DNA of 64,000 nucleotides from an uncultured bacterium (GCA_963705505.1 CAVPJU010000010.1:608001-672000); one strand, 5' to 3'; positions 10,689-33,600 are shown, counted from the stretch's first letter. Notes: generated by a model not told the origin, from the letters alone. A program made the numbers and translations.

Positions 10689-10716
10689 AATCCATCACAT
10701 CTATGCCTTCGTCTAA
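10689..10716 (+). promoter_or_regulatory. putative ECF promoter, copy 1 (glucose dehydrogenase operon)
   Basis: AATCC-N16-CGTCTAA. Confidence 0.75.
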
Positions 10717-10750
10717 CTAGGCAACTTCAGAATTTAAGGAGAGCCAAGTT

Positions 10751-11858
10751 ATGAAAGCGATAGCAGTGATTCCCGGAAAGCCGGGCAGCGTTCACCTGGC
10801 CGAGCTTCCGAAACCGGACATAAATGAAATCCCGAACGGACGCGGAGTATTGGTGAAGGTGCTGCGAGTCGGGGTGGACGGAACGGATAAGGAAATAAAC
10901 GCCGCGGAATACGGAGCCTCGCCCGCAGGATGCGATTTTCTCGTCATAGGACACGAGAGCTTCGGAATAGTAGAAAAAGTGGGAAAGAACGTTACCGAGT
11001 TCGTCCCCGGAGACTACGTAACGGCTACCGTACGCCGTCCCGGGAGGAAGTATTTACGACAAGATCGGCAAGTACGATACGACGACAGACGACACGTACT
11101 ACGAGCACGGCATCAACCTGCTCCACGGCTTTCTCACGGAGTACTATGTCGAGGATCCCGAATACCTTGTAAAGGTCCCGAGAGGGTTAAAAGAATACGG
11201 CGTGCTGCTTGAGCCCGCGAGCGTCATCGAAAAGGGCATAGCTCAGGCGTACGAGATACAGAGACGCCTCCGCGTCTGGCGCCCGAAGCGAGCCGCGGTG
11301 CTCGGGGCGGGGACAATAGGCCTCCTCGCGACTATGGCGCTGAGGCTGAGAGGGCTGCAGGTACACACCTTCGGCAGAACGAAAGCCCCTTATCTCAACT
11401 CCGACCTCATTCAAGAGATCGGGGCGGCATATCACACGACGGACGACATCAACCTCGTTGAGGCGGCGGAGAAGTACGGTCCATTCGACATAATCTTCGA
11501 GGCGACCGGTTTCTCTCCGATAGTGTTCGAAGCGATGAATATCCTCGGTAAAAACGGCGTGCTCGTGCTTTCGAGCGTGACGGGAGGGGAACGGAAGATC
11601 GAGGTGCCCGCCGACATGATAAACCTCGGTTTCGTACTCGGGAACAAGGTCGTCGTCGGAACAGTCAACGCGAACCGCGAGTATTTCGAGATGGGCGTTA
11701 AAGACATCTCGCACGCGGAGCACGAGTGGCCGGGGTGGATTTCCAAATTCCTCACTCACCCGGTGAAGGGTCTCGAGAACTACAACGAGCTCATAAGCAC
11801 GCTCACCGAAGCGAAAGGCGCGATAAAGGTCTTCTGTGAAGTAGCCCCGATTAATTGA
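10751..11858 (+). CDS. Zn-dependent MDR-family glucose 1-dehydrogenase, frameshift at ~11042
   Basis: VGVDGTD, GHES.G.V, TVRRP, HGFL.EY, LLEP.S, GAGTIG, VGTVNA; one extra G joins frames. Confidence 0.85.
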
Positions 11859-11876
11859 GCACCGGTTCTTACCACC

Positions 11877-12710
11877 ATGATGACAACATTAAAAAAACAT
11901 TGGCCTGAATACCTGATGGAGGGAGCCGGGCTCGGATTTTTCATGATATCCGCCTGTTTTTTCGTGGCGCTCCTGGAGCATCCGTCCTCTCCCGTCCACA
12001 TGGCGGTATCCGACCCGATGACGAGGAGGGTCCTCATGGGTATGGCAATGGGGCTGACCGCCATATCGATTATCTATTCCCCCTGGGGCAAGCAGTCGGG
12101 CGCGCACATCAACCCGTCGGTAACGCTGACATTCTTCAGGCTCGGAAAGGTAAGGGCCGTGGACGCGGTTTTTTACATCATTGCCCAGTTCGCGGGCGCG
12201 GCGGCAGGCGTTCTGATCGCCCACCTGGCAATCGGGAAGATCGCGTCACACCCGCATGTGAATTACGCGGCGACTTTCCCGGGCATGAAAGGGGTGGTAA
12301 TCGCGTTCATAGCGGAAGTAATCATCTCGTTCATCCTGATGACCGTCGTACTCGTGGCTTCCAACACTTCGAGCGTCGCGAGGTATACGGGCGTTTTCGC
12401 GGGCCTCCTCGTAGCGACATACATAACCTTCGAAGCCCCGATCTCGGGCATGAGCATGAACCCGGCGCGTTCCTTCGGATCGAGCCTCTTCGCGAACAGC
12501 CACGCGGGGTTGTGGATCTATTTCACCGCGCCCATATTCGGGATGCTTCTCGCTGCGGAAGCTTACGTCCGTATGAGGGGAGCGAGCGCCGTTTCCTGCG
12601 CAAAGCTCCATCATCAGAATAACAAGCGGTGCATCCACTGCGGCTACCCGGGCGAAGTTAAAGCGGAGAATCCGGCTTTGATAACTGAAAAAGTAAAAAG
12701 TTTGATATAA
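11877..12710 (+). CDS. MIP/aquaporin family channel with Cys/His-rich tail
   Basis: SGAHINPS and SMNPARS motifs, six TMs, C-terminal CAKLHH..RCIHC. Confidence 0.92.
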   Translation: MMTTLKKHWPEYLMEGAGLGFFMISACFFVALLEHPSSPVHMAVSDPMTRRVLMGMAMGLTAISIIYSPWGKQSGAHINPSVTLTFFRLGKVRAVDAVFYIIAQFAGAAAGVLIAHLAIGKIASHPHVNYAATFPGMKGVVIAFIAEVIISFILMTVVLVASNTSSVARYTGVFAGLLVATYITFEAPISGMSMNPARSFGSSLFANSHAGLWIYFTAPIFGMLLAAEAYVRMRGASAVSCAKLHHQNNKRCIHCGYPGEVKAENPALITEKVKSLI

Positions 12711-12745
12711 GGGATTTTTAAAATAATAAAACAGGAGGAATTACC

Positions 12746-13159
12746 ATGTTTAAATCATTCGAACTGAAAAGAGGTAAATCCGGTCTCGTCTGCTTGCTCG
12801 TGCTTCTTGCGCTCTTCTTCGGAGCGATAGGCAGTCAGGCGGCGGGCAGCATGACGACACAGCCGTTCACGGGCGTAAAGGTAAACGGCGGAACGGTAAC
12901 GCTTACAAAAGAAGGCGGCAAAACCGTCCTCACGCTGTCTGACGATTTCGTAGTCCCCCAGACCCCCGATCCGCACTGGCAGGTAGTCGACTCGAAAGGG
13001 AACGTTTACCTCCTCCAGAGACTGCCGATTAAGGGCGACAAAATAAACAAGTCCATAACGGTGCCGTCGTATGTACCGGATATTGCAAAGGTACAGATAT
13101 GGTGCGCTTACGCGGAGACGCTCCTCGGCGAGGCGCCGTTCGCTTCGCCTGTGAATTAA
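12746..13159 (+). CDS. secreted DM13-like protein
   Basis: Signal peptide; PDPHW...VQIWC..A..LLG.A resembles DM13 (PD...V.IWC..F...FG.A). Confidence 0.6.
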   Translation: MFKSFELKRGKSGLVCLLVLLALFFGAIGSQAAGSMTTQPFTGVKVNGGTVTLTKEGGKTVLTLSDDFVVPQTPDPHWQVVDSKGNVYLLQRLPIKGDKINKSITVPSYVPDIAKVQIWCAYAETLLGEAPFASPVN

Positions 13160-13264
13160 AGAGGTTAATCGAATAATGTGGCGGCCGGCAGTGTTTCGAT
13201 TGCGGAGACAGGCCGGCCGGTCAGTCAGTGAAGATAAAGAAAACCCGGAAACGGAGGAAAATAA

Positions 13265-14125
13265 ATGAGAATGATCGAGCTACTTCTAACTTTACTTCTT
13301 TTCATGTCGGCGGTTTCAGCGGACGCGCAGGTGGCGGAGAAAAAATCACTCACGCTCGAAGGCGCGAATACCGTGATCGCGGGCGCGATGGCCGAGGCTA
13401 AAAAGCTTAACGCTCCGGGAGGAGTCATAGCGGTCGTGGACGACGGCGGGAACCTCATGGCGCTCGAGCGTATCGACGGGACTTTCGCAGCGGGCGCTAA
13501 CATATCGATCGGAAAGGCGAGGACTGCGGCGCTCTTTAAGAAACCGACAAAATTTTTCGAGGACGTGATTAAGAACGGGCGCACCTCTATGGTCGCGCTC
13601 GCGGACTTCACACCGCTTCAGGGCGGAGTACCCATAATCATCGACGGCGCGATAGTTGGAGCCGTGGGCGTGAGCGGCGCGGCCAGCGCGCAGCAGGACG
13701 AGGAGCTCGCCATAGCGGGCGCCGACGCGGTAATGAACGGCACGGCGGCAAATACGAACCCCGCACCGATCACGTACTTTGACAGCGCCAGGGTGCAAGC
13801 CGCGTTCGCAAAGGGTATGCCCCTAACCGAAGCCGGAAATTACAAGGTTCATGCGAGCCGCAGGACCGATCCGGGCATGGCGGAGGTCCATACAAAGGAT
13901 ACGGACATCATCTACATGCTTCAAGGCTCGGCGACACTGGTGACGGGAGGAACGGTCGTTGACGGCAAGACGACAGCCCCCGACGAGATACGCGGAAAGG
14001 AGATTGCGGGCGGTGATACACTCAAAATCAATCCGGGCGACGTGATCATCATACCGGCCGGCACACCTCACTGGTTTAAGGAAGTGCAGGGTCCGGTCCT
14101 CTATTATGTCGTTAAGGTCAGTTAA
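13265..14125 (+). CDS. secreted GlcG/HbpS heme-binding protein fused to a cupin domain
   Basis: IAVVDDGG.L..LER.D, GKARTAA, LQGGVP..GAVGVSG; cupin EVH...GDVIIIPAGTPHWF. Confidence 0.88.
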   Translation: MRMIELLLTLLLFMSAVSADAQVAEKKSLTLEGANTVIAGAMAEAKKLNAPGGVIAVVDDGGNLMALERIDGTFAAGANISIGKARTAALFKKPTKFFEDVIKNGRTSMVALADFTPLQGGVPIIIDGAIVGAVGVSGAASAQQDEELAIAGADAVMNGTAANTNPAPITYFDSARVQAAFAKGMPLTEAGNYKVHASRRTDPGMAEVHTKDTDIIYMLQGSATLVTGGTVVDGKTTAPDEIRGKEIAGGDTLKINPGDVIIIPAGTPHWFKEVQGPVLYYVVKVS

Positions 14126-14143
14126 CTCCGGGAGAAGACAGAA

Positions 14144-14641
14144 ATGAAAACTATAATAAGCTCTCTGATCCTTTTATTTACCATATCCTCGCCGCTCGCG
14201 GCCATTGCGGAGACACCCGTAAAGCCGGTACTAACCCTGAGCGCCGCGAAGAAAGCTGCAGACGCAGCCGAGCGCGAGGCGGCAAAGAGGGGCGCGACAG
14301 TAGTGATCGCCGTGGTTGACGACGGCGGGCACCTGATACTCCTCGAGCGGCTCGACGATACACAGGTCGCAAGCGTCGAGGTAGGAATAGGCAAAGCCAG
14401 GACCGCCGCCATATTCAGGAGACCGAGCAAGGTGTTCGAGGACCAGATACGCGACGGCCGGGTCGCCGCGCTCGCGCTCCCCGGGGCGACGCCGCTTCAG
14501 GGAGGCATACCGATCATCATAGATGGCAAGGTAGCCGGGGCTATAGGCGTCAGCGGCAATACCCCCCAGGAAGATGAAGAGATCGCAATCGTCGGGGCTT
14601 CGGCAGTCAGCGACTCGTCAGTTAAAGGAGATAAACAATGA
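14144..14641 (+). CDS. secreted GlcG/HbpS heme-binding protein
   Basis: Same GlcG motifs, signal peptide. Confidence 0.88.
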   Translation: MKTIISSLILLFTISSPLAAIAETPVKPVLTLSAAKKAADAAEREAAKRGATVVIAVVDDGGHLILLERLDDTQVASVEVGIGKARTAAIFRRPSKVFEDQIRDGRVAALALPGATPLQGGIPIIIDGKVAGAIGVSGNTPQEDEEIAIVGASAVSDSSVKGDKQ

Positions 14642-16278
14642 GACTCGAATCAATCATATATGCAGCCGCATTCCTCTTATCCATCGTTTCCGCACTCGTC
14701 GCCCACGGCGCGGTGCCCGCGGACGTGCCGGGCGGAAAACCCGGTGCCGTCATCGATCTTGCGACCACGGAAGGGGTTAATCTCGTAAATGGGCAGTGGA
14801 CATACAGCGACGTCGAGATAACCGAAGTCGATTTCAAAGGACCCGGTGCGGACGGTCAGCCCACCGGGGCACCGATAAAAACGTACGATTATAGTCCGAA
14901 AGCGGGAGTATCGGACTACGATGACTCGAAATGGGAGAAGATAGCGCCCGAGACCCTGAATCAACGCCGCTCGACGGGGAGGATATGCTTTAACTGGTAC
15001 CGGATCAGGGTGACGATCCCCGAGAGCGTCCGGGGTTTCGCGACCGCGGGCTCGACGGTGGTGTTCGAGACCGCGATAGACGACTACGCGGAGGTCTGGG
15101 TGAACGGGGAGCTCCCCCGCTACATCGGTCAGGAGGGGGGCTCCGTGATTTCCGGATGGAACGCCCCCAACAGGCTCGTCATAGGGCGGGACGTCAAGCC
15201 GGGCCAAACCATACAGCTCGCGGTATTCGGTATGAACGGCCCGATCTCGAACCCGCCGACTAATTTCATATGGATGAGGGAGGCAAAGCTCGAGTTCTAT
15301 AAGGGGAGCGAGGTGCCGATCGCAGTAAAGCCGTCCGAAGTGAACGTGGAAGTCGTAAGGCTCGACCCCGCGATGGACGCAGTCGCCGGGCCTAACCCGA
15401 AAATATTCAAGCTAGCCGAAGGCTTCAAATTCACAGAAGGCCCCGTCTGGGTGGGTGACGGAGAATACCTCCTCTTCAGCGACCCGAACAGCAATGTTAT
15501 CTATAAATACTCGAAGGACGGAGACCTCTCCGTATTCCGCGAGCCGAGCGGGTATTCAGGCTCCGACATCGCGGAATATACGCAGCCGGGGTCAAACGGC
15601 CTCACTCTCGACAAAGCCGGCAGGCTTACGATTGACGAGCACGGGAACCACAGGGTCACGCGGATCGAGAAAGACGGCACTGTCACTGTATTGGCCGACA
15701 GCTACGAGGGTAAGAGGCTAAACAGTCCGAATGACCTGGTTTATAGGTCTGACGGCTCCCTGTACTTCACGGACCCGCCTTTCGGACTGCCCAAATTCGA
15801 GAAAGACCCAAGAAAAGAGATACCCTGGAGCGGGATATACCGAATCTCTCCTGACGGTGAAGTCGTCTTATTGAATAAGGAGTTAAAGGGACCGAACGGG
15901 ATAGCCTTTTCGCCCGATGAAAAGTACCTCTACGTCGGCAACTGGGACACGGAGAATAAGGTCGTGATGCGCTACGAAGTCAGGGAAGACGGCACTCTCT
16001 CGGAAGGACAGCGGTTCTTCGATATGACGAGCGCCCCGGGCGAGGACGCGATCGACGGAATAAAGGTCGATGCCAAAGGGAACCTGTATGTCTCGGGACC
16101 GGGCGGTGTGTGGGTGATTTCAGACGACGGTAAGCATATAGGGACTATCATTGCTCCGAGGCACGTCCACAATATGGCATGGGGAGGGGAAGACGGGAAA
16201 ACCCTCTTTCTCTGCGCGCAGAGCGGGTTATATATGATGCGCCTCGGTATTCAGGGCACAAATGTGCATTATAATTAG
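14638..16278 (+). CDS. secreted SMP-30/gluconolactonase family protein with N-terminal sugar-binding-like domain
   Basis: FTEGPVW, GSNGL, LNSPND, YFTDPPFG, PNGIAFSPD, DGIKVD; N-domain WYR...IDDYAEVWVNG. Confidence 0.88.
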   Translation: MRLESIIYAAAFLLSIVSALVAHGAVPADVPGGKPGAVIDLATTEGVNLVNGQWTYSDVEITEVDFKGPGADGQPTGAPIKTYDYSPKAGVSDYDDSKWEKIAPETLNQRRSTGRICFNWYRIRVTIPESVRGFATAGSTVVFETAIDDYAEVWVNGELPRYIGQEGGSVISGWNAPNRLVIGRDVKPGQTIQLAVFGMNGPISNPPTNFIWMREAKLEFYKGSEVPIAVKPSEVNVEVVRLDPAMDAVAGPNPKIFKLAEGFKFTEGPVWVGDGEYLLFSDPNSNVIYKYSKDGDLSVFREPSGYSGSDIAEYTQPGSNGLTLDKAGRLTIDEHGNHRVTRIEKDGTVTVLADSYEGKRLNSPNDLVYRSDGSLYFTDPPFGLPKFEKDPRKEIPWSGIYRISPDGEVVLLNKELKGPNGIAFSPDEKYLYVGNWDTENKVVMRYEVREDGTLSEGQRFFDMTSAPGEDAIDGIKVDAKGNLYVSGPGGVWVISDDGKHIGTIIAPRHVHNMAWGGEDGKTLFLCAQSGLYMMRLGIQGTNVHYN

Positions 16279-16315
16279 GCAAATTCGAAGGAGATCAAAT
16301 CCAAAGGACATTCAT

Positions 16316-17314
16316 ATGAAAGGACTATTCAAGAAGATTCATAGAGCGAAACATGCAGGCAGCAAAGACAATTCCGCACGTAACAGATGGGGCATAATTT
16401 TAGCGGGCGGTGACGGCACACGCCTCCGCTCTCTAACGAAATTGATTTCCGGAGACGAGAGACCCAAGCAATTCTGCCGCATACTGGACGAAGAATCCCT
16501 CCTCGAAAAAACTGTAAAACGGGTAGAGATAGGCATCCCCCGAAGCAATATCCTTTTATCACTCACGCGCACGCACGAAAAATTCTACAGCGACCTCTTC
16601 GATACATTCAATCAGAGCCAGCTTGTGGTTCAGCCGGCAAACCTGGGGACTGCTCCGGCGATACTTTACGGCCTCGTACGGATCGCAAGGATGAACCCCG
16701 AAGCCTCCGTCACATTCTTCCCTTCCGACCATTACCTGTCCGACGACGGAATATTCATGAGACAGGTTGAGTCGGCTTTTGAAGGGGTGGAGCGCGAACC
16801 GGGAAAGATAGTGCTCCTCGGGATAACACCGAGCTCAGCCGAGACGGAATACGGATGGATAGAGCCCGAACCCCACAACTATGACAACAACCCGGAATCA
16901 TTAACGAGAGTCAGGCGGTTCTGGGAGAAACCGGAAAAATCGACTGCGGTCGAGCTTCTGCAAAGAAGATGCCTCTGGAATAGCTTCGTCATGACCGGAA
17001 AAGTTTCTGCTTTTCTTAACATGATCAGCACGTCTCTCCCCGGGCTTTACCACGATTTCATGAGAGCGTGCGATATGTTCGGCACTCCTTCAGAGAGCGA
17101 CGCAGTCGAATACATCTATGAGAAACTCACCCCTTCGAATTTCTCACATAGGGTGCTCGAGGTGTCGACGAAAGACCTAATGGTGCTCGCCGTAAGAGAC
17201 ATCGAATGGAGCGATCTGGGTGAGCCGGGACGCGTGCTTTCAACCATGGAGAACATAGGAATACAGACGGATTGGACTCTTAAGAAAGAAAACCTCGTCC
17301 GCAAAATAGCGTAA
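16316..17314 (+). CDS. mannose-1-phosphate guanylyltransferase-like sugar nucleotidyltransferase
   Basis: ILAGGDGTRL, PKQF, GTAPAI, PSDH, YGWI, FWEKP, WNS, WSDLG. Confidence 0.88.
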   Translation: MKGLFKKIHRAKHAGSKDNSARNRWGIILAGGDGTRLRSLTKLISGDERPKQFCRILDEESLLEKTVKRVEIGIPRSNILLSLTRTHEKFYSDLFDTFNQSQLVVQPANLGTAPAILYGLVRIARMNPEASVTFFPSDHYLSDDGIFMRQVESAFEGVEREPGKIVLLGITPSSAETEYGWIEPEPHNYDNNPESLTRVRRFWEKPEKSTAVELLQRRCLWNSFVMTGKVSAFLNMISTSLPGLYHDFMRACDMFGTPSESDAVEYIYEKLTPSNFSHRVLEVSTKDLMVLAVRDIEWSDLGEPGRVLSTMENIGIQTDWTLKKENLVRKIA

Positions 17315-17392
17315 CTCTGCTCCTCCATACACACCGAACAAGAGTAATGTATATGCATGTGGAATAGCATGCATTCAGCAAGGGCAATCACC

Positions 17393-18037
17393 ATGGATAC
17401 TCAAGCCAAGCCGTTCGAATTAGGAAAAAACAGAATAGAGGCGCTGAGTGACGGCATATTCGCAATCGTCATGACGCTCCTCATATTCGAGCTCAAGACT
17501 TCGGACCTGCCGCAGCATGCATCCAACATCCAGCTCGCCCCCGCGCTTTTTAATATGTGGCCGAAGTTCCTATCATACATCGTAAGTTTTATCGGACTCG
17601 GAATCTACTGGGTAGCCCATCATTACATGTATCATTCGATAAGGCACTCGGACCGGATACTGCTCTGGCTCAATATCCTTTTCTTTATGTTCGTCTCCCT
17701 GCTCCCCTTCTCCACTAGTCTCATCAACTCATTCGGCCAGACACAGATAGCCCCCTTATTCTTCGGCGCCAACCTTACACTCATCGGATGGACGCTCTAT
17801 TTCCAGTGGCTTTATGCAAGCTCGAAGCCCGATCTTATCGCGGACTTCGTGACCAGGGAGTATGCGGAGTCCGTGCGTTTCCGGTTCCTTATAATACCGA
17901 TAATAGCGACCGTAACCATGCTCGTATGCTTCTGGAGCGTCGAGATACTGCTGATCGTATATGCGCTCCTCCTCCCGTTCTATACACTTACCGGAAAGCT
18001 GACGCCGCCGCGCGAGGCATCCATCGTAGAACAATAG
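17393..18037 (+). CDS. TMEM175 (DUF1211) family K+ channel
   Basis: RIEALSDGIFAIVMTLL signature, W..HH, SLLPF. Confidence 0.9.
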   Translation: MDTQAKPFELGKNRIEALSDGIFAIVMTLLIFELKTSDLPQHASNIQLAPALFNMWPKFLSYIVSFIGLGIYWVAHHYMYHSIRHSDRILLWLNILFFMFVSLLPFSTSLINSFGQTQIAPLFFGANLTLIGWTLYFQWLYASSKPDLIADFVTREYAESVRFRFLIIPIIATVTMLVCFWSVEILLIVYALLLPFYTLTGKLTPPREASIVEQ

Positions 18038-18076: not shown

Positions 18077-18104
18077 AATCCAAATGCGCACGGATTCCGT
18101 ATAG
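18077..18104 (+). promoter_or_regulatory. putative ECF promoter, copy 2 (msrB)
   Basis: AATCC-N16-CGTATAG. Confidence 0.7.
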
Positions 18105-18146: not shown

Positions 18147-18755
18147 ATGATAAAGACAACAGTAATTGCAGTTATAGCCATTATCGCGATATTCGTCGCT
18201 TTGAACTTGCTCGACACAGATAGAATAATTCGCGCTGATGACAGCGGCCAGCAGAAAGTGAGCGAAACCGGAACCGGGAACAACGCACAAACAAATAATA
18301 GTGGGGCGGCACAAACCGGCTTTGTAAAGCCCTCTCAAGAGGAGCTTAAAAAGAAGCTCACGCCCCTTCAGTATAAAGTCACACAGGAAAGCGGAACCGA
18401 AAGGCCGTTTAACAACGAATACTGGGATAATCATAAGGATGGAATATACGTCGACATAATCTCGGGTGAGCCGCTTTTCAGCTCCAAGGACAAATTCGAT
18501 TCGGGCACAGGGTGGCCGAGCTTCACGAAACCTCTGGTGGCCGAGAATATCGTCGAAGTGAAGGACAATAGCCTCGTTATAACGAGATTCGAAGTCAGAA
18601 GCAAGGAGGCAGATTCACATCTCGGGCACGTATTCGACGACGGGCCTCCCCCTACGGGACTCAGATACTGTATCAACTCCGCATCGCTCCGCTTTATACC
18701 GAAAGCGAATCTGGAGAAAGAGGGCTACGGGGAGTTCCTGGTTTTATTCCAATAA
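18147..18755 (+). CDS. msrB: peptide-methionine (R)-S-oxide reductase with N-terminal signal/anchor
   Basis: [30 protein letters not shown]. Confidence 0.95.
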
Positions 18756-18797
18756 GCCTGCATCGCCTGAAGAGGCCAATAATTTAATCGACTACAG

Positions 18798-18845
18798 GGC
18801 TGCTGCCGGTAACGATCTCTTCGTTATAAGCAGCAGCCTTTTTTT
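18798..18845 (+). terminator. intrinsic terminator after msrB
   Basis: GGCTGCTGC...GCAGCAGCC with inner TAACGA/TCGTTA stem, then T7. Confidence 0.8.
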
Positions 18846-18973
18846 ATATTTTGGGGCTCAAGGTACGAAGCCCGGGTAAGTGGTTTTAATTCTTCTCGGG
18901 CGGGACATCGCCGGTCACACAGCCGTCCGTTTTGACTTTTTTCAATCTTAATACTCCGTTAATGCAATCCCTA

Positions 18974-19079: not shown

Positions 19080-19922
19080 ATGAGAAAGGTCATTATCGCG
19101 TTGGGAGTAATCGTAATTATTATAGCGTGGTACCTGTTCAGGCCGGAGAAGCTGTTCATAAACAAGAGCGTGAATGAAGAATTACCGAGCGCTTCCACGG
19201 AGCAGACTAATTCACCCAGGATCCTAACAGAAGGCAATTTCCACGGTGTAGCCCATGAAACGAAAGGGACTGCGGCAATCTACGAGCTCCCGGACGGGAA
19301 TCGTGTGCTTCGTCTGACAAACTTCGAAACATCAAACGGCCCCGACGTGCATGTCTTCCTGGGAGCCGCTCAGGACGCGAACGACAACGACACCGTTACA
19401 ACCGCCGGATATATAGAGCTCGGCTCGCTCAAGGGCAACGTCGGCGATCAGAACTACGAGATCCCTTCAGAGATAGACCTCGGCAAATACCATTCGGTCA
19501 CGATCTGGTGCAAACGGTTCGGCGTTAACTTCGGCACCGCGCCTCTGACAACTGCTTCCGCATCGGATTCGGGACCGGTCGGGATCTATCAAGGCAGCTT
19601 CCACGGAGTAGCCCATGAAACGAAAGGGACCGCGGCGATCTACGAGCTCCCCGACGGGAATCGGGTGCTTCGCTTGACGGACTTCGAAACCTCGAACGGC
19701 CCCGACGTGCATGTCTTCTTAGGAGCCGCTCAGGACGCGAATGACAACGACACCGTCACCACTGCCGGATATATAGAGCTTGGATCACTCAAGGGCAACG
19801 TCGGCGATCAGAACTACGATATCCCTTTAGAGATAGACCTCGGGAAGTACCACTCGGTCACGATCTGGTGTAAACGGTTCGGCGTTAACTTCGGGACGGC
19901 TCCACTTGTAGCATCTAAATAA
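19080..19922 (+). CDS. membrane-anchored tandem DM13 domain protein
   Basis: G.FHG.AH.T.G...LRL..F.TSNGPD..V.L...LG.LKGN.G.QNY.IP...V.IWC.RF.V.FG.A twice. Confidence 0.92.
   Translation: MRKVIIALGVIVIIIAWYLFRPEKLFINKSVNEELPSASTEQTNSPRILTEGNFHGVAHETKGTAAIYELPDGNRVLRLTNFETSNGPDVHVFLGAAQDANDNDTVTTAGYIELGSLKGNVGDQNYEIPSEIDLGKYHSVTIWCKRFGVNFGTAPLTTASASDSGPVGIYQGSFHGVAHETKGTAAIYELPDGNRVLRLTDFETSNGPDVHVFLGAAQDANDNDTVTTAGYIELGSLKGNVGDQNYDIPLEIDLGKYHSVTIWCKRFGVNFGTAPLVASK
19231..19907 (+). repeat. internal direct duplication, 360-bp period
   Basis: ~19231-19547 vs ~19591-19907; 4 aa differences over ~105 aa. Confidence 0.92.
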
Positions 19923-19936
19923 TGGAGGCCATGAAA

Positions 19937-21487
19937 ATGTCATCTGACAAACATTACGACGTAATAATAATAGGGACAGGGGCAGGCGGCGGCACATTGG
20001 CCCACGCCCTCGCTCCCTCGGGCAAGAAAATTCTGCTCCTCGAACGGGGAGGCTACGTGCCGCGCGAGAAGGACAACTGGGACACCCGTGCCGTAAACGT
20101 CGAGGGTAAATACCAGACAAAAGAAATCTGGCACGATAAAGACGGGAAGCCCCTCCATCCGCACACGAACTACTACGTCGGCGGCAATACCAAATTCTAC
20201 GGAGCGGCCCTCTTTCGGCTTCGGAAAGAGGACTTCGGAGAGCTCAGGCATAAGGGCGGCATCTCTCCGTCATGGCCCATCTCATACGAGGAGCTCGAGC
20301 CTTACTACACAAAAGCCGAGCAGCTTTACCATGTGCACGGAAGACGCGGGGAAGACCCGACAGAGCCTCACGCGAGCGCCCCGTATCCCTACCCCCCCGT
20401 ATCCCATGAGCCCAGGATGCAGGAGCTTCATGACGACCTCGAAAGAAGCGGACTAAAGCCATTCCATGTACCCGTAGGGGTCAGGCTCGATGAGAGTAAC
20501 CCCAGGAAGAGTCCTTGCATAAGGTGCAGCACATGCGACGGTCACCCGTGCCTCGTAAACGCAAAGTCGGACGCACAGGTGCTATGTGTAGACCCCGCAC
20601 TCGAGTATGAAAACGTATCGCTCCTTACCAACTCCTATGTATCCCGCCTCGAAACGAGCCCTTCCGGACGGGAGGTATCGAAGGTTATAGTCGAGCGGAA
20701 CGGGAGCAGGGAGGAATATACCGCGGACATAGTCGTCGTATCATGCGGCGCAATCAACTCAGCGGCACTCTTACTCAGGTCGGCGAACGACAAGCATCCC
20801 CGCGGGCTCGCCAACGGCTCGGACGTCGTCGGAAGGCATTATATGGGACACGTCAATTCAATACTGATGGCATTATCGAAGAAGCCCAACCCCACGATAT
20901 TTCAGAAGACGCTCGCCCTTAACGATTACTATTTCGGCTCGGAAGATTACGAATACCCGATGGGCCACATCTCTTTTGTGGGAAAGCTCGATGCGGCTAC
21001 TCTGTCGGCGGGAGCACCCGCCATCGTACCGGGGATGACCCTGGATATTATGGCCAAGCACTCCCTCGATTTCTGGATCACGTCTGAAGACCTGCCTGAC
21101 CCGGAGAACAGGGTCACGCTCGATTCGAACGGGAACATAGTGCTGTCCTATACGCCCAACAACCAGGAGTCGCATAAACACCTGATAGCAAAGCTCAAGA
21201 GCCTCATGAACTCGATCGGCTGTCACGAGGAGCACCTTATACCAAGGAACCTCTTCATCGGACAGCAGATACCGCTTGCGGGCGTCGCACACCAGAACGG
21301 GACAATACGTTTCGGCAAAGACCCGGCGTCATCGGCTCTCGATGAAAACTGCAAGGCGCACGAACTCGAGAACCTCTACGTCGTGGATGCGAGCTTCTTT
21401 CCCTCCTGCGGCGCTGTCAATCCCGCACTCACAATCATGGCGAACGCACTCCGCGTTGGGGATCACATGCTCGGAAGGATGGGATAA
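19937..21487 (+). CDS. GMC family FAD oxidoreductase
   Basis: IIGTGAGGG, LLERG, VGGNTKFYGA, CIRCSTCDGHPC, AHQNGT, NPALTI; start chosen by GGAGG spacing. Confidence 0.92.
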   Translation: MSSDKHYDVIIIGTGAGGGTLAHALAPSGKKILLLERGGYVPREKDNWDTRAVNVEGKYQTKEIWHDKDGKPLHPHTNYYVGGNTKFYGAALFRLRKEDFGELRHKGGISPSWPISYEELEPYYTKAEQLYHVHGRRGEDPTEPHASAPYPYPPVSHEPRMQELHDDLERSGLKPFHVPVGVRLDESNPRKSPCIRCSTCDGHPCLVNAKSDAQVLCVDPALEYENVSLLTNSYVSRLETSPSGREVSKVIVERNGSREEYTADIVVVSCGAINSAALLLRSANDKHPRGLANGSDVVGRHYMGHVNSILMALSKKPNPTIFQKTLALNDYYFGSEDYEYPMGHISFVGKLDAATLSAGAPAIVPGMTLDIMAKHSLDFWITSEDLPDPENRVTLDSNGNIVLSYTPNNQESHKHLIAKLKSLMNSIGCHEEHLIPRNLFIGQQIPLAGVAHQNGTIRFGKDPASSALDENCKAHELENLYVVDASFFPSCGAVNPALTIMANALRVGDHMLGRMG

Positions 21488-21508
21488 GAACGCAAGGATC
21501 AGAATCCT

Positions 21509-22549: not shown

Positions 22550-22570
22550 AATCCCTTCAAGGAGAAAATA

Positions 22571-23138: not shown

Positions 23139-23203
23139 GAACTCAATCAAGGACGTAGCGAATCCCCCCTCAAACCGGGCGGGATTAGAAAGAAGGAGGA
23201 CTT

Positions 23204-23383: not shown

Positions 23384-23435
23384 GAGTGAGCAATCGGCTC
23401 ATTAAAGCGATAAACAATATAAGGAGAGGAAGAAA

Positions 23436-23630: not shown

Positions 23631-23741
23631 ACCGGACCCGGAAGTAGTCCGATCGGTATCAGTCGGGTAACCGAGGTGAATAATTGCACGAGCGATCGGT
23701 TGAGGACCGGTAATATTTGAATGCAGGGAGGGGGTAAACTT

Positions 23742-24089: not shown

Positions 24090-24136
24090 TAAAAGTCTTT
24101 TAATATATCGACGGTAATCTTCGACAGGAGCAACAA

Positions 24137-26834
24137 ATGACGAAAGAAGAAAAAAGGCTTGATGAGGACAGGGAGAAAAAAGGACACTGGAGGAGATGGG
24201 GGCCTTACTTAAGCGAGAGGCAGTGGGGAACGGTGAGGGAGGACTACAGCCCATACGGGACCGCATGGGATTATTTCTCTCATGAACTCGCCCGCTCGAG
24301 GGCGTACAGATGGGGAGAGGACGGAATCGGGGGTATTTCAGACAACCACCAGAGGCTCTGCTTCGCGTTAGCCCTGTGGAACGGAAAAGACCAGATACTG
24401 AAAGAGAGATTATTCGGACTCACGGGCAGCGAGGGGAACCACGGGGAAGACGTAAAGGAATACTATTTTTATCTGGACAACACACCCGTGCATTCCTACA
24501 TGAAATACCTGTACAAATATCCGCAGGAGGCTTATCCATACTCGGAGCTCGTCGAAGAGAACAGGCGGAGGGGCAAGCACGAGCTCGAATACGAGCTCAT
24601 AAATACGGGCGTGTTTGACGGCAACCGCTATTTCGACGTCTTCATCGAGTATGCGAAGGCATCGCCCGACGATATGCTCATTAAGATAACGGCAGTTAAC
24701 AGGGGCGGGCAAAGGGCTTCGCTCCACATGCTTCCGACGCTCTGGTTCCGCAATACCTGGTCATGGAACGGAGGGCAAAGACCTTCTTTAAGTACAGCGG
24801 GGTCGGATAAAACCCACAAGCTCGTCGAAGCGAATCACCACTCCCTGGGAAAGAGGTGGCTGTATATAGAGGACCCGGACGATCTGCTCTTTACCGAAAA
24901 CGAGACCAATTCGGAAAAGCTTTTCGGGATTAAAAACGCCTCTCCCTATGTCAAGGACAGCATCAACGACTACATCGTGGACGGAAAAAAAGAAGCCGTT
25001 AACCCGGCGGGGACAGGCACGAAAATGTCCGCTCATTACGTGCTGGAGATTCCGGGCGGCGGGACAAAGACAGTGAGGCTCCGCCTGACCGATTCTGGAA
25101 AACTGACCTCACCCTTCGGCGCGGAATTCGATACCGTATTCGAAGACCGGAAGCGGGAGGCCGACGAGTTCTACGCGAACATCAACCCCTTCAACACGAG
25201 TGAGGAAATGAAAGCAGTCCAGAGACAGGCTTTCGCAGGGATGCTGTGGACAAAACAGTTCTATTACTATGTCATAGAGGACTGGCTCAAGGGAGACCCC
25301 AAGCACCCCTCCCCTCCCGGCGAACGAAGGAAGGGCAGGAACCGCGAATGGACGCACCTCTATAACGACGACATACTTTCTATGCCCGACAAATGGGAGT
25401 ACCCGTGGTTTGCAGCCTGGGACCTCGCGTTTCATACGATACCGCTCGCGATGATAGACCCCGAATTCGCCAAGCGTCAGCTCACTCTCCTGACGAGGGA
25501 GTGGTACATGCATCCCAACGGCCAGATACCGGCCTACGAGTGGGCGTTCGGAGACGTGAATCCTCCCGTTCACGCCTGGGCCGCGTGGAGAGTTTACAAT
25601 ATCGAAAAGAAGATGTACGGCAGAAAGGACTTTCGCTTCCTCGAGAGCGTGTTCCAGAAGCTCCTCCTGAATTTCACGTGGTGGGTAAACAGGAAAGACA
25701 GGGAAGGGAGGAACGTATTCGAGGGAGGGTTCCTCGGACTCGACAACATAGGCGTATTCGACAGGAGCGCCCAGCTCCCGACGGGCGGGCATATCGAGCA
25801 GGCGGACTGCACGAGCTGGATGGGGATGTACTGCCTCAATATGCTTGCAATTGCGCTCGAGCTCGCTAAAGAAAATCCGAGCTACGAGGACATAGCCAGC
25901 AAGTTTTACGAGCACTTCCTTTACATAGCGAAAGCCATGAATCTGCTCGGAGGCGATATGGACGGGCTCTGGAATGAAGAAGACGGGTTTTACTATGACG
26001 TGCTCCACCTGCCCTGACGGCAAGCATATCCCAATGAAGGTCCGCTCGATGGTCGGCCTTATCCCGCTCTTCGCTATCCAGACACTCGAGCCTGAAATTC
26101 TGGAGCGACTGAACGGATTTAACAGCAGGCTCTCATGGTTTATAGAGAACCGTCCCGATCTGAAGGAAAATGTCGCCTGCATGAAAACGACGGGTATGAA
26201 TGAGAGAAGGCTGCTCTCGATAGTCGGTAAGGAAAAGCTCACGAGCATACTCAGGAAGATGCTCGATGAAAACGAGTTCTTAAGCCCCTACGGAATCCGG
26301 GCGATCTCGAGGTTCCACAAAGACAACCCCTACAAGTTTAATGTAAACGGCAACGAGTACAGGGTCGATTACGAGCCTGCCGAGTCCACGAGCGGTCTCT
26401 TCGGCGGGAACTCCAACTGGCGCGGTCCGGTCTGGTTCCCTGTCAATTTCCTCATTATAGAATCCTTACAGAAGTTCCACTATTACCTGGGAGACGATTT
26501 TAAGGTCGAGTGTCCGACCGGCTCCGGCAAGTACATGACACTCTGGGAGACCGCGGCTGAGATTTCCCGCAGGCTTACGCGCATATTCATTAAAGACGAA
26601 GAGGGAAGAAGGCCCGTGTTCGGAGGGACAGAGATGTTCCAGACAGACCCGGAATGGAGGGACTATATACCCTTCCACGAATATTTCCACGGGGACAACG
26701 GCGCTGGAGTGGGAGCGAGCCACCAGACCGGCTGGACCGGATTAGTAGCCAAGCTCATTCAGCAAACCGGGGAGTATTCACTGCTGCCGGAAACAGGGAA
26801 GAAAAAGGTGTCCGGACGCTGGGACCACACTTAG
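24137..26834 (+). CDS. GH63/MGH1-like glucosidase (paralog 1), frameshift at ~26012
   Basis: [54 protein letters not shown]; one extra C joins frames. Confidence 0.88.
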
Positions 26835-26893
26835 ACTCATGATATCCGTTCTCTATTTTTTATTCCCGACAGGGCCGGGAGGTAGACTCGATT

Positions 26894-28888
26894 ATGGCAA
26901 TTGAATTCGGAAGGGAGATTTGCTGCGAGCTGGATATAGCGGAAAGAAGGGAATGGCTCGTGACGAACGGGATCGGCGGATTCGCCTCCGGCACGATCGC
27001 GGGGATGCTTACGCGCAGGTATCACGGGCTCCTGGTAGCGGCGCTCAAGCCGCCCCTCGGCAGGAACCTCCTCGTTACGAAGCTCGACGAGACGGTAAGT
27101 TATGAAGACAAGGAATATCCACTCAGCTCGAACCGCTGGGCCGACGGAACGGTCGATCCCCGGGGCTATGTCCAGATAGAGAAATTTTACCTCGACGGGA
27201 CGACCCCGGTTTGGAACTTCGCATGCGCCGACGCCCTGCTCGAAAAACGCATATGGATGGCCCGGGCTGCTAATACGACCTATGTAAGATACGAGCTTAA
27301 AAGAGCCGCGCGCCCCCTCGGTATAAGCATCAAGGCATATGTGAATTACAGGGATTACCACGGTACGACACACGCGGGCGGCTGGAGGATGAAGGTCGAA
27401 AAAGCCGGGAACGGCGTACGGATTAACGCCTATGACGGGGCGGTCCCCTTTTATATCCTCACCGATAAGGCGGACGCTGCACAATCGAACGACTGGTATT
27501 TCGGCTTCGACTTGGCTCTTGAGGAATCGAGGGGGCTCGACCACATCGAAGACCACCTCCACGCCGCGACCCTTACGTACACACTCGAAGAAGGCGATTC
27601 ATTTATCGTAGTCAGCAGCACCGAAGCGGCTCCCGAGCTCGACGGAAATAAAGCGCTCGGGCTCAAAAATAGCTACGAGGAAGGAATAATCGGAAGGTTC
27701 AGGAACAAAAGATCGACATACGCTAAAGACGGAACTCCCGAGCTAAACCATCTGGCCCTCGCCGCAGACCAGTTCGTAGTAAACAGACCTTCCGGGCAGG
27801 ATAAAGAAGGCAAGAGCGTGATCGCCGGTTATCATTGGTTCGGGGACTGGGGAAGGGACACCATGATAAGCCTTCCCGGATTGACTATTGCCACGGGCAG
27901 GCCCGAAATCGCGAAGTCGATACTCAAGACCTTCGCCCTTTACGTCGATGAGGGGATGCTCCCCAACCGCTTCCCCGACGCCGGGGAAAAACCTGAATAT
28001 AATACGGTCGATGCCACGCTCTGGTACTTCGAGGCAGTGCGCGCGTATATTGAAGACACGAAAGACAGCGCTTTTCTGGAAGAGCTCTTTCCGGTCCTGG
28101 AGAGCATTATCGACTGGCACAATAAGGGCACCCGTTACAATATCAAGACCGACCCGAAGGACGGACTTCTTTACGCAGGAGAGGAAGGCGTCCAGCTTAC
28201 ATGGATGGACGCCAAAGTGGGGGATTGGGTAGTCACCCCCCGGATCGGGAAACCCGTCGAAGTAAACGCCCTCTGGTACAACGCCCTTCATTCCATGGCG
28301 GAATTCTCGAAACTCCTGAAAAAGCCGTCAAAAAAATATGAAGCCGCGGCCGACACCGCTCTCAAGGGCTTTTTGCGCTTTTGGAACTACGAATCCGGTT
28401 ACTGCTTCGACGTTATCGACGGGCCGGGAGGGAACGACCCCTCGCTAAGACCGAACCAGCTGTTTGCCGTTTCACTGCCCGAGAGCCCCCTGGCGTCCGA
28501 TAAGCAAAAGAAAGTCGTCGAAGCCTGCGCTCTGAGCCTCCTTACCTCCCACGGACTGAGGAGCCTCTCTCCAGGCCATCCGGACTATAAAGGACGCTAC
28601 GGAGGGGACCCGAGAGCGAGGGACGGAGCGTACCATCAGGGCACCGTCTGGGGGTGGCTCCTGGGGCACTTTGCACTCGCGCACATGAGGGTGTTCGGCG
28701 ATCCTGAAAAAGCGAGAGGTTATTTAGCTCCGATGCTCGGCCAGATGCGGTCGCACGGCGTGGGCAGCCTTAGCGAAATCTTCGACGGCGACGCGCCCAT
28801 GACTCCCAGGGGATGCATCGCCCAGGCCTGGACCGTGGCCGAGGTAATACGGGCATGGACGGATATCGAGAAATATAGCGGCAAATAA
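26894..28888 (+). CDS. amylo-alpha-1,6-glucosidase (glycogen debranching enzyme, GH133-like)
   Basis: REWLVTNG.GG, AGYHWF.DWGRDT, LTWMDAK, RPNQ, YHQGTVW.W, QAW. Confidence 0.92.
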   Translation: MAIEFGREICCELDIAERREWLVTNGIGGFASGTIAGMLTRRYHGLLVAALKPPLGRNLLVTKLDETVSYEDKEYPLSSNRWADGTVDPRGYVQIEKFYLDGTTPVWNFACADALLEKRIWMARAANTTYVRYELKRAARPLGISIKAYVNYRDYHGTTHAGGWRMKVEKAGNGVRINAYDGAVPFYILTDKADAAQSNDWYFGFDLALEESRGLDHIEDHLHAATLTYTLEEGDSFIVVSSTEAAPELDGNKALGLKNSYEEGIIGRFRNKRSTYAKDGTPELNHLALAADQFVVNRPSGQDKEGKSVIAGYHWFGDWGRDTMISLPGLTIATGRPEIAKSILKTFALYVDEGMLPNRFPDAGEKPEYNTVDATLWYFEAVRAYIEDTKDSAFLEELFPVLESIIDWHNKGTRYNIKTDPKDGLLYAGEEGVQLTWMDAKVGDWVVTPRIGKPVEVNALWYNALHSMAEFSKLLKKPSKKYEAAADTALKGFLRFWNYESGYCFDVIDGPGGNDPSLRPNQLFAVSLPESPLASDKQKKVVEACALSLLTSHGLRSLSPGHPDYKGRYGGDPRARDGAYHQGTVWGWLLGHFALAHMRVFGDPEKARGYLAPMLGQMRSHGVGSLSEIFDGDAPMTPRGCIAQAWTVAEVIRAWTDIEKYSGK

Positions 28889-28919: not shown

Positions 28920-31166
<2,247 letters not shown>

Positions 31167-31464: not shown

Positions 31465-31480
31465 TGGCACAACGCTTGCA
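31465..31480 (+). promoter_or_regulatory. sigma54 (-24/-12) promoter
   Basis: TGGCAC-AACGC-TTGCA with exact GG-N10-GC spacing, facing the STAS gene and divergent from the activator. Confidence 0.88.
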
Positions 31481-31560: not shown

Positions 31561-31860
31561 ATGCTGATGATATCGAAAATAAAGCAGGACAATGAAAACA
31601 TCACGTTGAAGTTGGACGGGAAGATCGAGGGGATGTATTTAGAGGAGCTGGAGGGGGCATGTAAATGTCACCGCGCCGGAAACAACAAAACGATAACACT
31701 GGATTTTTCGGGTGTGACCTTTATAGACGATAAGGCTTTGGAAGTACTGTCGAGGTTAAAAGACAGACGTTTAAAGATAGTCAAGTGCTCTCCCTTCATC
31801 AAGACTCTGCTGAACGAACTGGCGGACGATGAACGGGAAGAAGGTAGCGTAAAAAATTAG
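31561..31860 (+). CDS. STAS domain protein
   Basis: LKLDG.I...TLDFSGVTFID...L..L. Confidence 0.8.
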   Translation: MLMISKIKQDNENITLKLDGKIEGMYLEELEGACKCHRAGNNKTITLDFSGVTFIDDKALEVLSRLKDRRLKIVKCSPFIKTLLNELADDEREEGSVKN

Positions 31861-31882
31861 AATGCCATGCGGAGGCAACGTT

Positions 31883-32551
31883 ATGAGTGCGTATAAATTA
31901 AAGAGCAGGGAAGTCAGTGTTAAGTCGAATATAGGTAATTCGTGTTTGGATATTTCAGAGATGCCCGATGAGAATCTGCTTGACCGCATTGCCGTAAGCG
32001 GGAACGAGCAGGCGCTTAATGAAATCCTGAGACGCTACAGAGACAGGATATACAGGACCGCTCTAAAAGTTACGAACAACCATAACGACGCCGAGGATGT
32101 AGTTCAGGAGGTTTCGCTGACGATTTACAGAAAGGCGCATACCTTCCGCACGGATTCCAAGTTCTCGACCTGGCTATACAGGCTCGTCACAAACGAAGCC
32201 ATCTCGAGACTGAGAAAAATTAGAAGAGAAAGAACCGTCTCGCTCGACGATTATATGCCCAGGTTCGACGATGACGGTCACCATGCCGAAAGACCTGTAG
32301 TCGACTGGTCGCAGGAGGTGGAGAAAAAGGTAGCCGTGAGGGAGATACAGTCCATTATAGAACGGGCAATGCAGGAGCTTACGCCCATCGACAGGACCGT
32401 AGTGGTACTGAGCGAAATAGAGGAGCTGACGAATCCGGAGATCGGAAAGGTGCTCGGCCTGAGCGTACTGGCAGTGAAAGGGAGACTCCACAGGGCGCGA
32501 CTTTTTCTCCGTGCAAAACTGGCGGTCCAGCTGGGATATTCAGCAGCTTAA
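31883..32551 (+). CDS. ECF RNA polymerase sigma factor
   Basis: Region 2 DAEDVVQE..FSTWLYRL..N; region 4 EIG.VLG.S..AVKGRLHRAR; GGAGG RBS. Confidence 0.95.
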   Translation: MSAYKLKSREVSVKSNIGNSCLDISEMPDENLLDRIAVSGNEQALNEILRRYRDRIYRTALKVTNNHNDAEDVVQEVSLTIYRKAHTFRTDSKFSTWLYRLVTNEAISRLRKIRRERTVSLDDYMPRFDDDGHHAERPVVDWSQEVEKKVAVREIQSIIERAMQELTPIDRTVVVLSEIEELTNPEIGKVLGLSVLAVKGRLHRARLFLRAKLAVQLGYSAA

Positions 32552-32644: not shown

Positions 32645-32672
32645 GATCCAACCCCTTCTTCCATACGTCTAA
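32645..32672 (+). promoter_or_regulatory. putative ECF promoter, copy 4 (anti-sigma)
   Basis: GATCC-N16-CGTCTAA. Confidence 0.75.
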
Positions 32673-32691
32673 TCAGGTAAAGAGGAAAGAA

Positions 32692-32907
32692 ATGGCCGGA
32701 CGAATAATTCCAAAGAATAAAAGACAGTCTGTTGACACATGCAGGGATGCGACGAGCCTGATACTAGAGTTTCTGCAGGGAGAGCTGAGCCCGGAGACCA
32801 ATTCCGAATTCGAGAAGCACCTGCAAGTATGCCCTGATTGTGTAGCGTTTCTGAACACGTACAGAAAAACCATCGAGCTTACCAAGAGGTTTCTCCATAA
32901 GCAGTAG
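32692..32907 (+). CDS. soluble zf-HC2 (ZAS) anti-sigma factor
   Basis: C...L.GEL...HLQVCPDC (HxxxCxxC); no TM segment. Confidence 0.88.
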   Translation: MAGRIIPKNKRQSVDTCRDATSLILEFLQGELSPETNSEFEKHLQVCPDCVAFLNTYRKTIELTKRFLHKQ

Positions 32908-32954
32908 GCATTCCCCGGTATTCTCAAAAGACATCCCGCAAATTAAAAAAAATG

Positions 32955-32982
32955 GATCCCTTTTCGTATTCCCAGCGTATAA
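32955..32982 (+). promoter_or_regulatory. putative ECF promoter, copy 5
   Basis: GATCC-N16-CGTATAA. Confidence 0.72.
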
Positions 32983-33023
32983 ATATCTATAGTTCTAAAA
33001 AATCCAATAAGGAGGTATTTAAA

Positions 33024-33378
33024 ATGCAAAGATTGAGATTACTTGCATTTTCGTTAATAATAGCAGTAAGTTTCGCCAGTCTTTTTACGGCACGGTCTTT
33101 TGCCGCTGACGCGGGCACAAAGACGATTACGGGGACCATAATCTGTTTGATACCCGATTATAAGAAAGGCACTGTTACGCCTGTAATTGCAACGGGTCCC
33201 TGTAACAGCTTACCCCCACATCAGCACATCCTCGTGACGAAGGAAGGAACCGTTTATACCCTTCAGGGTCTTCAGGAGGGCTTGATGAAGGTCGTCCATG
33301 ATGCCCAAGAGGACCAATGTAACTATGACCGGGAAGGTAGAGGGCAATAATTACGGCTGGGTTCTATTTGTAGATTAG
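33024..33378 (+). CDS. small secreted protein, probable frameshift at ~33295
   Basis: TAAGGAGG RBS, signal peptide (SFA-AD), two Cys; shifted frame gives MPKRTNVTMTGKVEGNNYGWVLFVD*. Confidence 0.65.
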
Positions 33379-33390
33379 ATAACGTTTTTT

Positions 33391-33415
33391 GGGGAGAGAT
33401 TCGAAATCTCTCCCC
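33391..33415 (+). terminator. stem-loop after the secreted protein gene
   Basis: GGGGAGAGATT-CGA-AATCTCTCCCC; poor U-tract. Confidence 0.55.
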
Positions 33416-33572
33416 GAAATTATCCTCTTTTATTTAACGTTTATAGCCCTCCCGCCGGGCAATGACTTTAATCCAGGCAAAAGTATTTTTAACCTTCTAA
33501 AGCAACAAACCGAAGCAAAAACTAACGAGCCGATCGACTCGTTAAATGCACCACTTATATACCGCGCAAATT

Positions 33573-33600
33573 AATCCAATGGACTCCGGACGTCGTCTAA
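33573..33600 (+). promoter_or_regulatory. putative ECF promoter, copy 6
   Basis: AATCC-N16-CGTCTAA. Confidence 0.75.

Follow-up and report, generated by a model that had tools for sequence, protein, structure and literature searches.

The question raised by this locus is which sigma factor reads six near-identical promoter-like sequences in a 64,000-nucleotide (nt) stretch of DNA from an uncultured bacterium (GCA_963705505.1 CAVPJU010000010.1:608001-672000), and what, in turn, controls that reader. This stretch, G000:C10:608001-672000 in the numbering of the local genome (G000), is called the window below. A first-pass annotation had proposed that the six copies, RATCC-N16-CGTMTAR, are recognized by a sigma factor of the extracytoplasmic function (ECF) type, encoded at 31883, and unite about 25 kb of genes in a redox-stress regulon. 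From sequence comparison, we consider it probable that the locus encodes a two-tier cascade, in which sigma54 and its activator would switch on the ECF gene, and the ECF sigma factor would switch on six units and, with them, its own anti-sigma factor.

Six copies of a two-box promoter motif

The predicted ECF promoters (P1 to P6) and the hairpins near them are as follows.

10689..10716, plus strand: P1, ATCC-N16-CGTCTAA, 34 nt before the glucose dehydrogenase gene; both boxes invariant in nine aligned loci
18077..18104, plus strand: P2, ATCC-N16-CGTATAG, for msrB; CGTATA in 10 of 10 aligned loci
18796..18847, plus strand: intrinsic terminator after msrB, z -6.0, with U-tract; precedes P3
18974..19001, plus strand: P3, ATCC-N16-CGTCTAA, before the DM13 unit
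32645..32672, plus strand: P4, GATCC-N16-CGTCTAA, before the anti-sigma gene
32955..32982, plus strand: P5, GATCC-N16-CGTATAA, before the secreted-protein gene
about 33387-33424: strong hairpin after the secreted-protein gene, z -4.9
33573..33600, plus strand: P6, ATCC-N16-CGTCTAA, before the acyl-ligase fusion gene

All six copies were confirmed on the plus strand with identical 16-nt spacing, and the strict pattern had exactly six matches in the window, where 100 shuffles averaged 0.07. Because the pattern had been fitted to these copies, the shuffle figure is circular, and the spacer control and the orthologues are the fair tests; a reversed-pattern control differs in word composition, and the spacer controls were used as the basis instead. 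With [AG]ATC[CT]-Nn-CGT[AC]TA[AG], the window held six matches at n = 16 and zero or one at every other n from 10 to 23, and the whole genome held 11 at n = 16 against one to six at other spacers. From P1 to P6, the copies lie 34, 42, 78, 19, 41 and 50 nt before a start codon, in agreement with the range of about 20-80 nt first given; the gene model omitted two short window genes, and intergenic tallies are approximate. The description of the motif as local was right for six of the ten strict matches in the genome; two others lie beside a different ECF gene on contig C6 and two are antisense inside genes.

Upstream of orthologues, the boxes are fixed and the 16-nt spacer drifts at all six promoters, as aligned for the loci where the search found a site (15 loci at P4, 5-10 at each other promoter). 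At P4, identity to the majority reached 0.97 in ATCC and 1.00 in the -10 box, against 0.56 in the spacer; the corresponding values at the other five promoters were 1.00, 0.95-1.00 and 0.75-0.91. The -10 type is gene-specific, with CGTCTAA at the glucose dehydrogenase (gdh), DM13, anti-sigma and acyl-ligase genes and CGTATA at msrB, and at P5 the local genus has CGTATAA, family f7 CGTCTAA and genus g4 CGTCCAA. Fixed spacing, the two-box footprint and recurrence in other lineages all argue that the copies are ECF-type promoters. Two finer points of the first-pass annotation held in part: the base after ATCC is always A or C in the window, although orthologues can have T or G there; and of the three copies said to follow a hairpin, those at 18974 (z -6.0) and 33573 (z -2.85) do so, but the hairpin before 10689 is weak (z -1.06) and not above shuffles. 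Both msrB and the secreted-protein gene are followed by a strong hairpin, which implies that the units downstream require their own promoters.

The local ECF sigma factor and a probable sigma54 tier above it

The regulatory genes and sites between the target units are listed here.

28920..31166, minus strand: divergent sigma54 activator, GAF-GAF-AAA+-helix-turn-helix (HTH), FhlA/NifA-like, GAFTGA at residue 508
31332-31344 and 31351-31363, no strand assigned: tandem enhancer, two copies of CAC(G/T)ATATTTC(G/A)T, putative activator binding site
31465..31480, plus strand: predicted sigma54 -24/-12 promoter, TGGCAC-N5-TTGCA, for STAS-ECF
31561..31860, plus strand: STAS-domain protein, weak STAS match, below cut-off
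31883..32551, plus strand: ECF sigma factor, 222 amino acids (aa), proposed reader, with no ECF promoter of its own
32692..32907, plus strand: soluble 71-aa zinc anti-sigma factor, zf-HC2, HxxxCxxC, no cupin

With r2 and r4_2 domains, no sigma3 and a length near 200 aa, the local ECF belongs to group 4 of the sigma70 family, and homologues 81% identical to it are labelled Candidatus Dadabacteria. Co-occurrence of sites with its clade and the tree make it, as first proposed, the likeliest reader; for the four CGTCTAA copies at least, the comparative data back it more strongly than any other candidate. Among the best 30 anti-sigma loci from 120 genomes, a site ATC(C/T/A)-N16-CGTC(T/C)AA within 170 nt of the anti-sigma start was present in 18 of 23 orthologous loci and in none of seven paralogous pairs. 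For DM13 (30 loci, two of them without upstream DNA), CGTCTAA sites preceded the gene in 14 of 17 genomes with an ECF orthologue and in two of 11 without; both of the latter belong to the local genus, and three further non-orthologue loci had CGTATA-type matches. In genome G013, the activator, STAS gene and sigma54 site are missing, the anti-sigma gene is frameshifted and the sites have decayed.

The association also reaches distant bacteria. A metagenome scan with the C-terminal half of the ECF gave 80 loci, of which four close ones were dropped, and the ECFs of the remaining 76 (295 kb) are mostly 40-56% identical to the local one; 80 generic ECF loci (1.1 Mb, mostly 23-38% identity) from a generic-pattern scan served as a negative control only. 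The window-derived pattern had 17 matches at n = 16 on the ECF strand of the distant loci, zero to four at other spacers and one on the opposite strand, and its profile in the generic loci was flat, with four at n = 16. A pattern widened afterwards gave 25 matches at n = 16, four at n = 15 and none elsewhere, against one in the control, and the distant-lineage site can be written GYAWCN-N16-CGTCYAA. In a 66-row tree, the local ECF fell in a 39-row clade (support 100/96) with all 26 site-bearing rows, and none of the 15 labelled rows outside it had a site. Labels of ECF homologues were Ca. Dadabacteria, Thermodesulfobacteriota, Deltaproteobacteria and one Ignavibacteriales. Where at least 2.5 kb of downstream DNA was available (17 distant loci), anti-sigma (14), gdh (11) and MIP (9) genes recurred, which suggests that the target cluster was inherited with the cascade. 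In metagenome loci such as L266, L268, L272, L288 and L296, a conserved 67-aa open reading frame (ORF) comes first behind the ECF promoter that lies downstream of the anti-sigma gene.

Residues F88, S92, K199, G200 and H203 of the local ECF correspond to RpoE positions by a numbering that we take to be correct, and the C at -10 presumably goes with Phe/Ser. Lys171 and Gly/Ala172 fit measured preferences, given in part of PMC7776599 as C at -31 for Lys at RpoE-171 (0.98) and no preference at -34 for Gly/Ala at 172, and the A/G mix at -34 matches. The same part names positions 64 and 68 as -10 determinants, which are Phe and Ser in the local ECF.

There is no motif copy upstream of the ECF gene (31883-32551); a sigma54 site lies there instead. 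The earlier scheme thus appears to have lacked a top tier, with the ECF gene placed under a conserved sigma54 promoter and enhancer. The site at 31465-31480 is the only sigma54 consensus match in the window, and rpoN was found in the genome. It is kept in 13 of the 14 loci of the phylum that have STAS and sequenced upstream DNA, the exception (G043:C130) having no strict match, and in 20 of 22 distant STAS loci with a relaxed pattern. A supposed loss of this promoter in G002 was dropped, as the region is an assembly gap of Ns. The tandem ATTTCG-core repeat forms a conserved block in a 13-locus alignment, 100-135 bp upstream of the sigma54 promoter; of its three matches in the genome, the window one alone is then followed by a sigma54 site, and a related tandem repeat is visible in most distant loci. 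By its sequence, the activator qualifies as a sigma54 enhancer-binding protein, with an AAA+ domain bearing GAFTGA, an HTH and a putative enhancer within the expected range of about 100-150 bp from the -24/-12 site, and its C101 and T131-P132-C133 are invariant across 13 aligned relatives. STAS is absent where the activator is absent (G013, L244, L247) and also accompanies paralogous activator-ECF modules; a role alongside the activator therefore seems likelier than one as anti-anti-sigma factor. In L247, with no STAS or activator matches, a site lies directly upstream of the ECF gene.

We propose a plausible order of events as follows. A small-molecule or redox signal would be sensed by the GAF domains and switch on the divergent AAA+ activator, which would bind the tandem enhancer and open the sigma54 promoter at 31465, giving a STAS-ECF mRNA. 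The ECF holoenzyme would then, as the comparative data strongly suggest, read ATC(C/T)-N16-CGTCTAA and probably tolerate CGTATA too, turning on six units of about 22 genes for glucan and sugar breakdown, glucose oxidation, detoxification, repair and small-solute channels. As an ECF target, the zinc anti-sigma factor would act as a delayed brake with negative feedback, and oxidation of its zinc thiolate could keep the ECF on, so that output would require induction plus release; a redox input through the zinc anti-sigma factor and the invariant GAF cysteines is plausible. In Dadabacteria, the anti-sigma gene usually stands 100-145 nt behind the ECF gene and has an ECF promoter to itself; most distant loci have 3-30 nt between the two genes and their first site after the anti-sigma gene, which in those lineages would be co-transcribed instead. 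No terminator was found between the ECF and anti-sigma genes of the window (z -0.13), and read-through into the latter is thus possible.

Weighing the local ECF against other readers

Several findings weigh against the local ECF as reader and against the cascade. Genomes G001, G004 and G009 carry real deletions of all or most of the activator-STAS-ECF head with nearly unchanged sites, the sole -10 change being one site in G004. Part of PMC7776599 associates T at -32 with Arg at RpoE-175, but the local ECF has His (H203) there, as does its clade. Of four paralogues sharing its region-2 loop, two have Arg175, so some cross-reading is conceivable. Among 61 distant loci (42 clusters), a strict site follows the ECF gene within 650 nt in only 13 (7 clusters), and the higher count of 24 (13 clusters) came from the widened pattern, fitted afterwards. 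The 31 metagenome rows of the tree were chosen by hand out of 76, with enrichment for sites, kin genomes are not independent samples, and the lone sigma54 match, with one mismatch allowed, has a chance expectation of 0.85 if taken alone. Some of these points can be softened: at -32 the distant sites have T in 10 of 21 and A in 9 of 21, which suggests tolerance; and the islands of G001, G004 and G009 show decay, with gdh truncated in each and several frameshifts in G009, so that recent ECF loss or cross-reading by a paralogue would explain their retained sites. Repeated loss of the activator-STAS-(ECF) head with island decay was seen in one family (G001:C61, G004:C45, G009:C17, G013:C7).

The genome encodes other candidate readers, with 26 sigma2 matches, 13 of them ECF-sized; among these are the local ECF's four paralogues and three SigK-like factors (C6, C8, C3). 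At G000:C6:321155-323312 (L001:7156-9313), a SigK-like ECF, a ChrR-cupin anti-sigma factor and fasciclin stand with two GATCC-N16-CGTATAA sites, an ECF19s19-like architecture, and at G000:C3:103476 an AATCC-N16-CGTATA site follows a SigK-like ECF and an anti-sigma-like neighbour, in the GATCC form in G002, G007 and G009. Strict sites beside orthologues of the C6 ChrR-type ECF in eight genomes were GATCC-N16-CGTATA in 16 of 16 cases (one looser CATCC...CGTCTAT match also lies near a ChrR-type ECF in G013). They match the RpoE-ChrR consensus TGATCC-N16-CGTA, as given in part of PMC5507510, which makes a reader acting in trans a serious rival.

Such a reader might share the motif with the local ECF, which would read the four CGTCTAA copies, while SigK/ChrR-type ECFs would be the main or additional readers of the two CGTATA copies, those before msrB and the secreted-protein gene. 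This division is a real possibility, to which we give somewhat less than an even chance, and it is compatible with most of the reading preferred here. It agrees with the uniform CGTATA of the ChrR-type-adjacent sites and of the msrB promoter, and with the listing of SelR and fasciclin as ECF18 context genes in part of the PMC7826278 supplement. However, P5 toggles between CGTATAA, CGTCTAA and CGTCCAA among genera, yet stays beside a local-type ECF, and A stands at -34 in six of ten msrB sites, though Ser172 prefers G there (0.83; PMC7776599, in part). P2 may be the best candidate for sharing.

A paralogue (C10:524244, C2:89508 or C6:513822) as main reader, or as the factor that sustains the regulon after loss of the local gene, would account for the retained sites in G001, G004 and G009, and paralogue identity to the local ECF is 41-44%, the region-2 loop is shared and two of them carry Arg175. 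We nevertheless regard it as improbable, since no site stands beside paralogous ECFs (none of seven pairs, none of ten labelled rows of the paralogue clade) and all three paralogues in G036 have His175.

Still less probable is that SigK/ChrR-type ECFs read all six copies in trans with the local ECF as a bystander, although the -35 core and spacing are the same as in ECF11, these factors carry Arg175, and sites persist in the three genomes that lost the local ECF. Six genomes of 83-96% completeness (G023, G036, G042, G043, G045, G046) have an ECF orthologue, frameshifted in G023, and CGTCTAA sites, and a search at E 1e-22 found no SigK/ChrR-type ECF match in them, that of G036 being a pseudogene. 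On these grounds sole reading in trans was set aside as unlikely; the CGTCTAA sites, moreover, track the local ECF clade in distant loci, and the ChrR-type-adjacent sites are all CGTATA.

It is hardly credible that the copies match by chance or serve a transcription factor other than a sigma factor: the pattern was drawn post hoc and five of 100 shuffles reach six with one mismatch (which adds no copy in the window), but fixed spacing on one strand, placement 19-78 nt upstream of genes, a two-box footprint with a free spacer and recurrence in independent lineages stand against it.

Target genes, related systems and meaning

If the local ECF is the reader, its putative targets are the anti-sigma gene and the following.

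10751..18037, plus strand: putative unit 1, eight genes, gaps -17 to 105 nt, presumed co-transcribed: Zn glucose dehydrogenase, MIP channel, secreted protein, HbpS-cupin, HbpS, gluconolactonase-like, nucleotidyltransferase, TMEM175 channel
18147..18755, plus strand: msrB (SelR), with N-terminal extension
19080..28888, plus strand: putative unit 3, ten genes, gaps -1 to 111 nt, presumed co-transcribed: DM13, GMC oxidoreductase, glyoxalase, FMN reductase, Zn-ribbon, DUF2934, thiamine-binding-like, MGH1-like glucosidase (two ORFs), glycogen-debranching enzyme
33024..33350, plus strand: small protein with signal-peptide-like N-terminus, no Pfam family
33651..36281, plus strand: AMP-ligase / carrier / acyltransferase fusion

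These six units with 22 putative targets look like a general-stress set of glucan and sugar breakdown plus detoxification rather than a singlet-oxygen set. The target set reads as mobilisation of reserve carbohydrate together with detoxification, which resembles general-stress regulons. The label of a redox regulon was therefore too narrow, as many targets are carbohydrate enzymes, and six units covering about 21 kb replace the span of about 25 kb, with no copy belonging to the activator, STAS or ECF gene. A literature search linking DUF2934 with general stress gave no match, and a sequence-atlas search with the secreted protein (33024..33350) matched only unnamed clusters. A plasmid search gave no match at E 1e-35.

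The Zn glucose dehydrogenase gene is split in the window (10751-11858) and intact, at 368 aa, in six of six relatives, so assembly indel errors are likely behind the split window genes, which also include 22571-23138, 40104-42820 and 50310-52521, with purL among them. The two ORFs of the MGH1-like glucosidase (24137-26834) have an identical boundary in every mapped relative, two families included, which points to a natural split; 40104-42820 holds a paralogue. The DM13 protein (19080-19922) has two domains in the window and in G007 and one in most relatives. A second msrB (G000:C6:646853-647426) stands behind ATCC-N15-CGTCTAA and is a possible unlinked target.

The closest known parallel in working is the HrpRS-sigma54-HrpL cascade of Pseudomonas syringae (ECF32), where an AAA+ enhancer-binding protein and sigma54 drive a non-autoregulated ECF with a clustered regulon (PMC8999054 and the PMC7826278 supplement, each in part). 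The local cascade appears HrpL-like and recurs with the same target genes in distantly related bacteria, as judged by sequence. Unlike HrpL, it has a single GAF-GAF activator, a STAS gene and a zinc anti-sigma brake, and its promoter and metabolic and stress targets differ from the GGAAC / CCAC promoter and type III secretion of HrpL; of the features of ECF32, an ECF behind a sigma54 promoter with an enhancer-binding protein was found, by sequence only, and the type III secretion context and GGAAC/CCAC were not. FhlA of enterobacteria, the second-best NCBIfam match of the activator (below cut-off), shares the GAF-GAF-AAA+-HTH order, and its enhancer CATTTCGTACGAAATG (PMC4987338, in part) has an ATTTCGT core in common with the local one, whereas enhancer geometry and target differ.

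Among ECF groups, ECF270, compared by description only, is the best candidate; the locus has in common with it, and with ECF271, a soluble zinc anti-sigma factor at +1. The part of Casas-Pastor et al. (2021) on this group places it in Deltaproteobacteria, Nitrospirae, Ignavibacteriae and Zavarzinella and calls its promoter motifs "not conserved", which a non-autoregulated ECF would lead one to expect; that text gives only the anti-sigma context and no promoter, whereas the local locus has a sigma54/STAS head, target cluster and motif. The -35 ATCC and the 16-nt spacing to CGT are shared with RpoE-ChrR (ECF11) and SigK-like ECF18/ECF19, as those are described in part of the literature, but their -10 is CGTA, against CGTC in four of the six local copies, and their anti-sigma factors have a cupin or RskA domain. 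The analogy first drawn to RpoE-ChrR and singlet oxygen was thus abandoned, and with it ECF11 membership: the local anti-sigma factor is a lone zf-HC2 with no ChrR cupin at +1, the ECF gene has no autoregulatory promoter ahead of it, and the true ChrR-cupin locus belongs to a different contig (C6). The local ECF is not SigK-like. ECF19s7 and ECF19s18 share a STAS gene at -1 (a weak match here) and a soluble zinc-finger anti-sigma factor; part of PMC7826278 describes the latter as fused to a mycothiol maleylpyruvate isomerase domain, with no sigma54 control described, in contrast to 71 aa of zf-HC2 only. In the available text of its supplement, GATCC had no match, AATCC one (ECF284) and GATC one (ECF11), and sigma54 control is mentioned for ECF32 only. 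No description of such a sigma54-ECF-zinc anti-sigma system was found in the open-access literature.

Promoters of non-autoregulated ECFs escape the usual search upstream of the sigma gene, and transcription of the ECF by sigma54 would explain the blank promoter entry of ECF270-type groups, listed in part of the classification without a conserved promoter or experimental data. To these groups the locus offers a candidate promoter and regulon, and by its sequence it probably gives an ECF270-like clade its first promoter. The system would be a second kind of sigma54-to-ECF cascade, with an anti-sigma brake and metabolic targets; it bears on the ECF recognition code, through His175 with T at -32 and single-base insulation at -10, and could supply orthogonal parts for synthetic circuits. 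As a tentative proposal, rather more likely to fail in some part than to hold as a whole, this may be an undescribed ECF group serving as general-stress/starvation sigma factor of Dadabacteria and other uncultured lineages. Its output would be an AND gate of induction by sigma54 and the GAF activator and release from a self-made zinc anti-sigma factor; STAS would be one more feedback element. The -35 would be held in common with the host's SigK/ChrR-type ECFs, a single -10 base (CGTC vs CGTA) would insulate the two, and msrB and the secreted-protein gene would integrate both.

A second module of activator, sigma54 promoter and ECF (the Arg175 paralogue) lies at G000:C2:89508-93071, with no anti-sigma gene seen and a remnant of the secreted-protein gene downstream. 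The 2.9-Mb genome also has eleven RpoD-like sigma paralogues, two of which (C1:56114-57289 and C1:270303-271454) stand behind a sigma54 consensus, which suggests more sigma54-to-sigma70 cascades.

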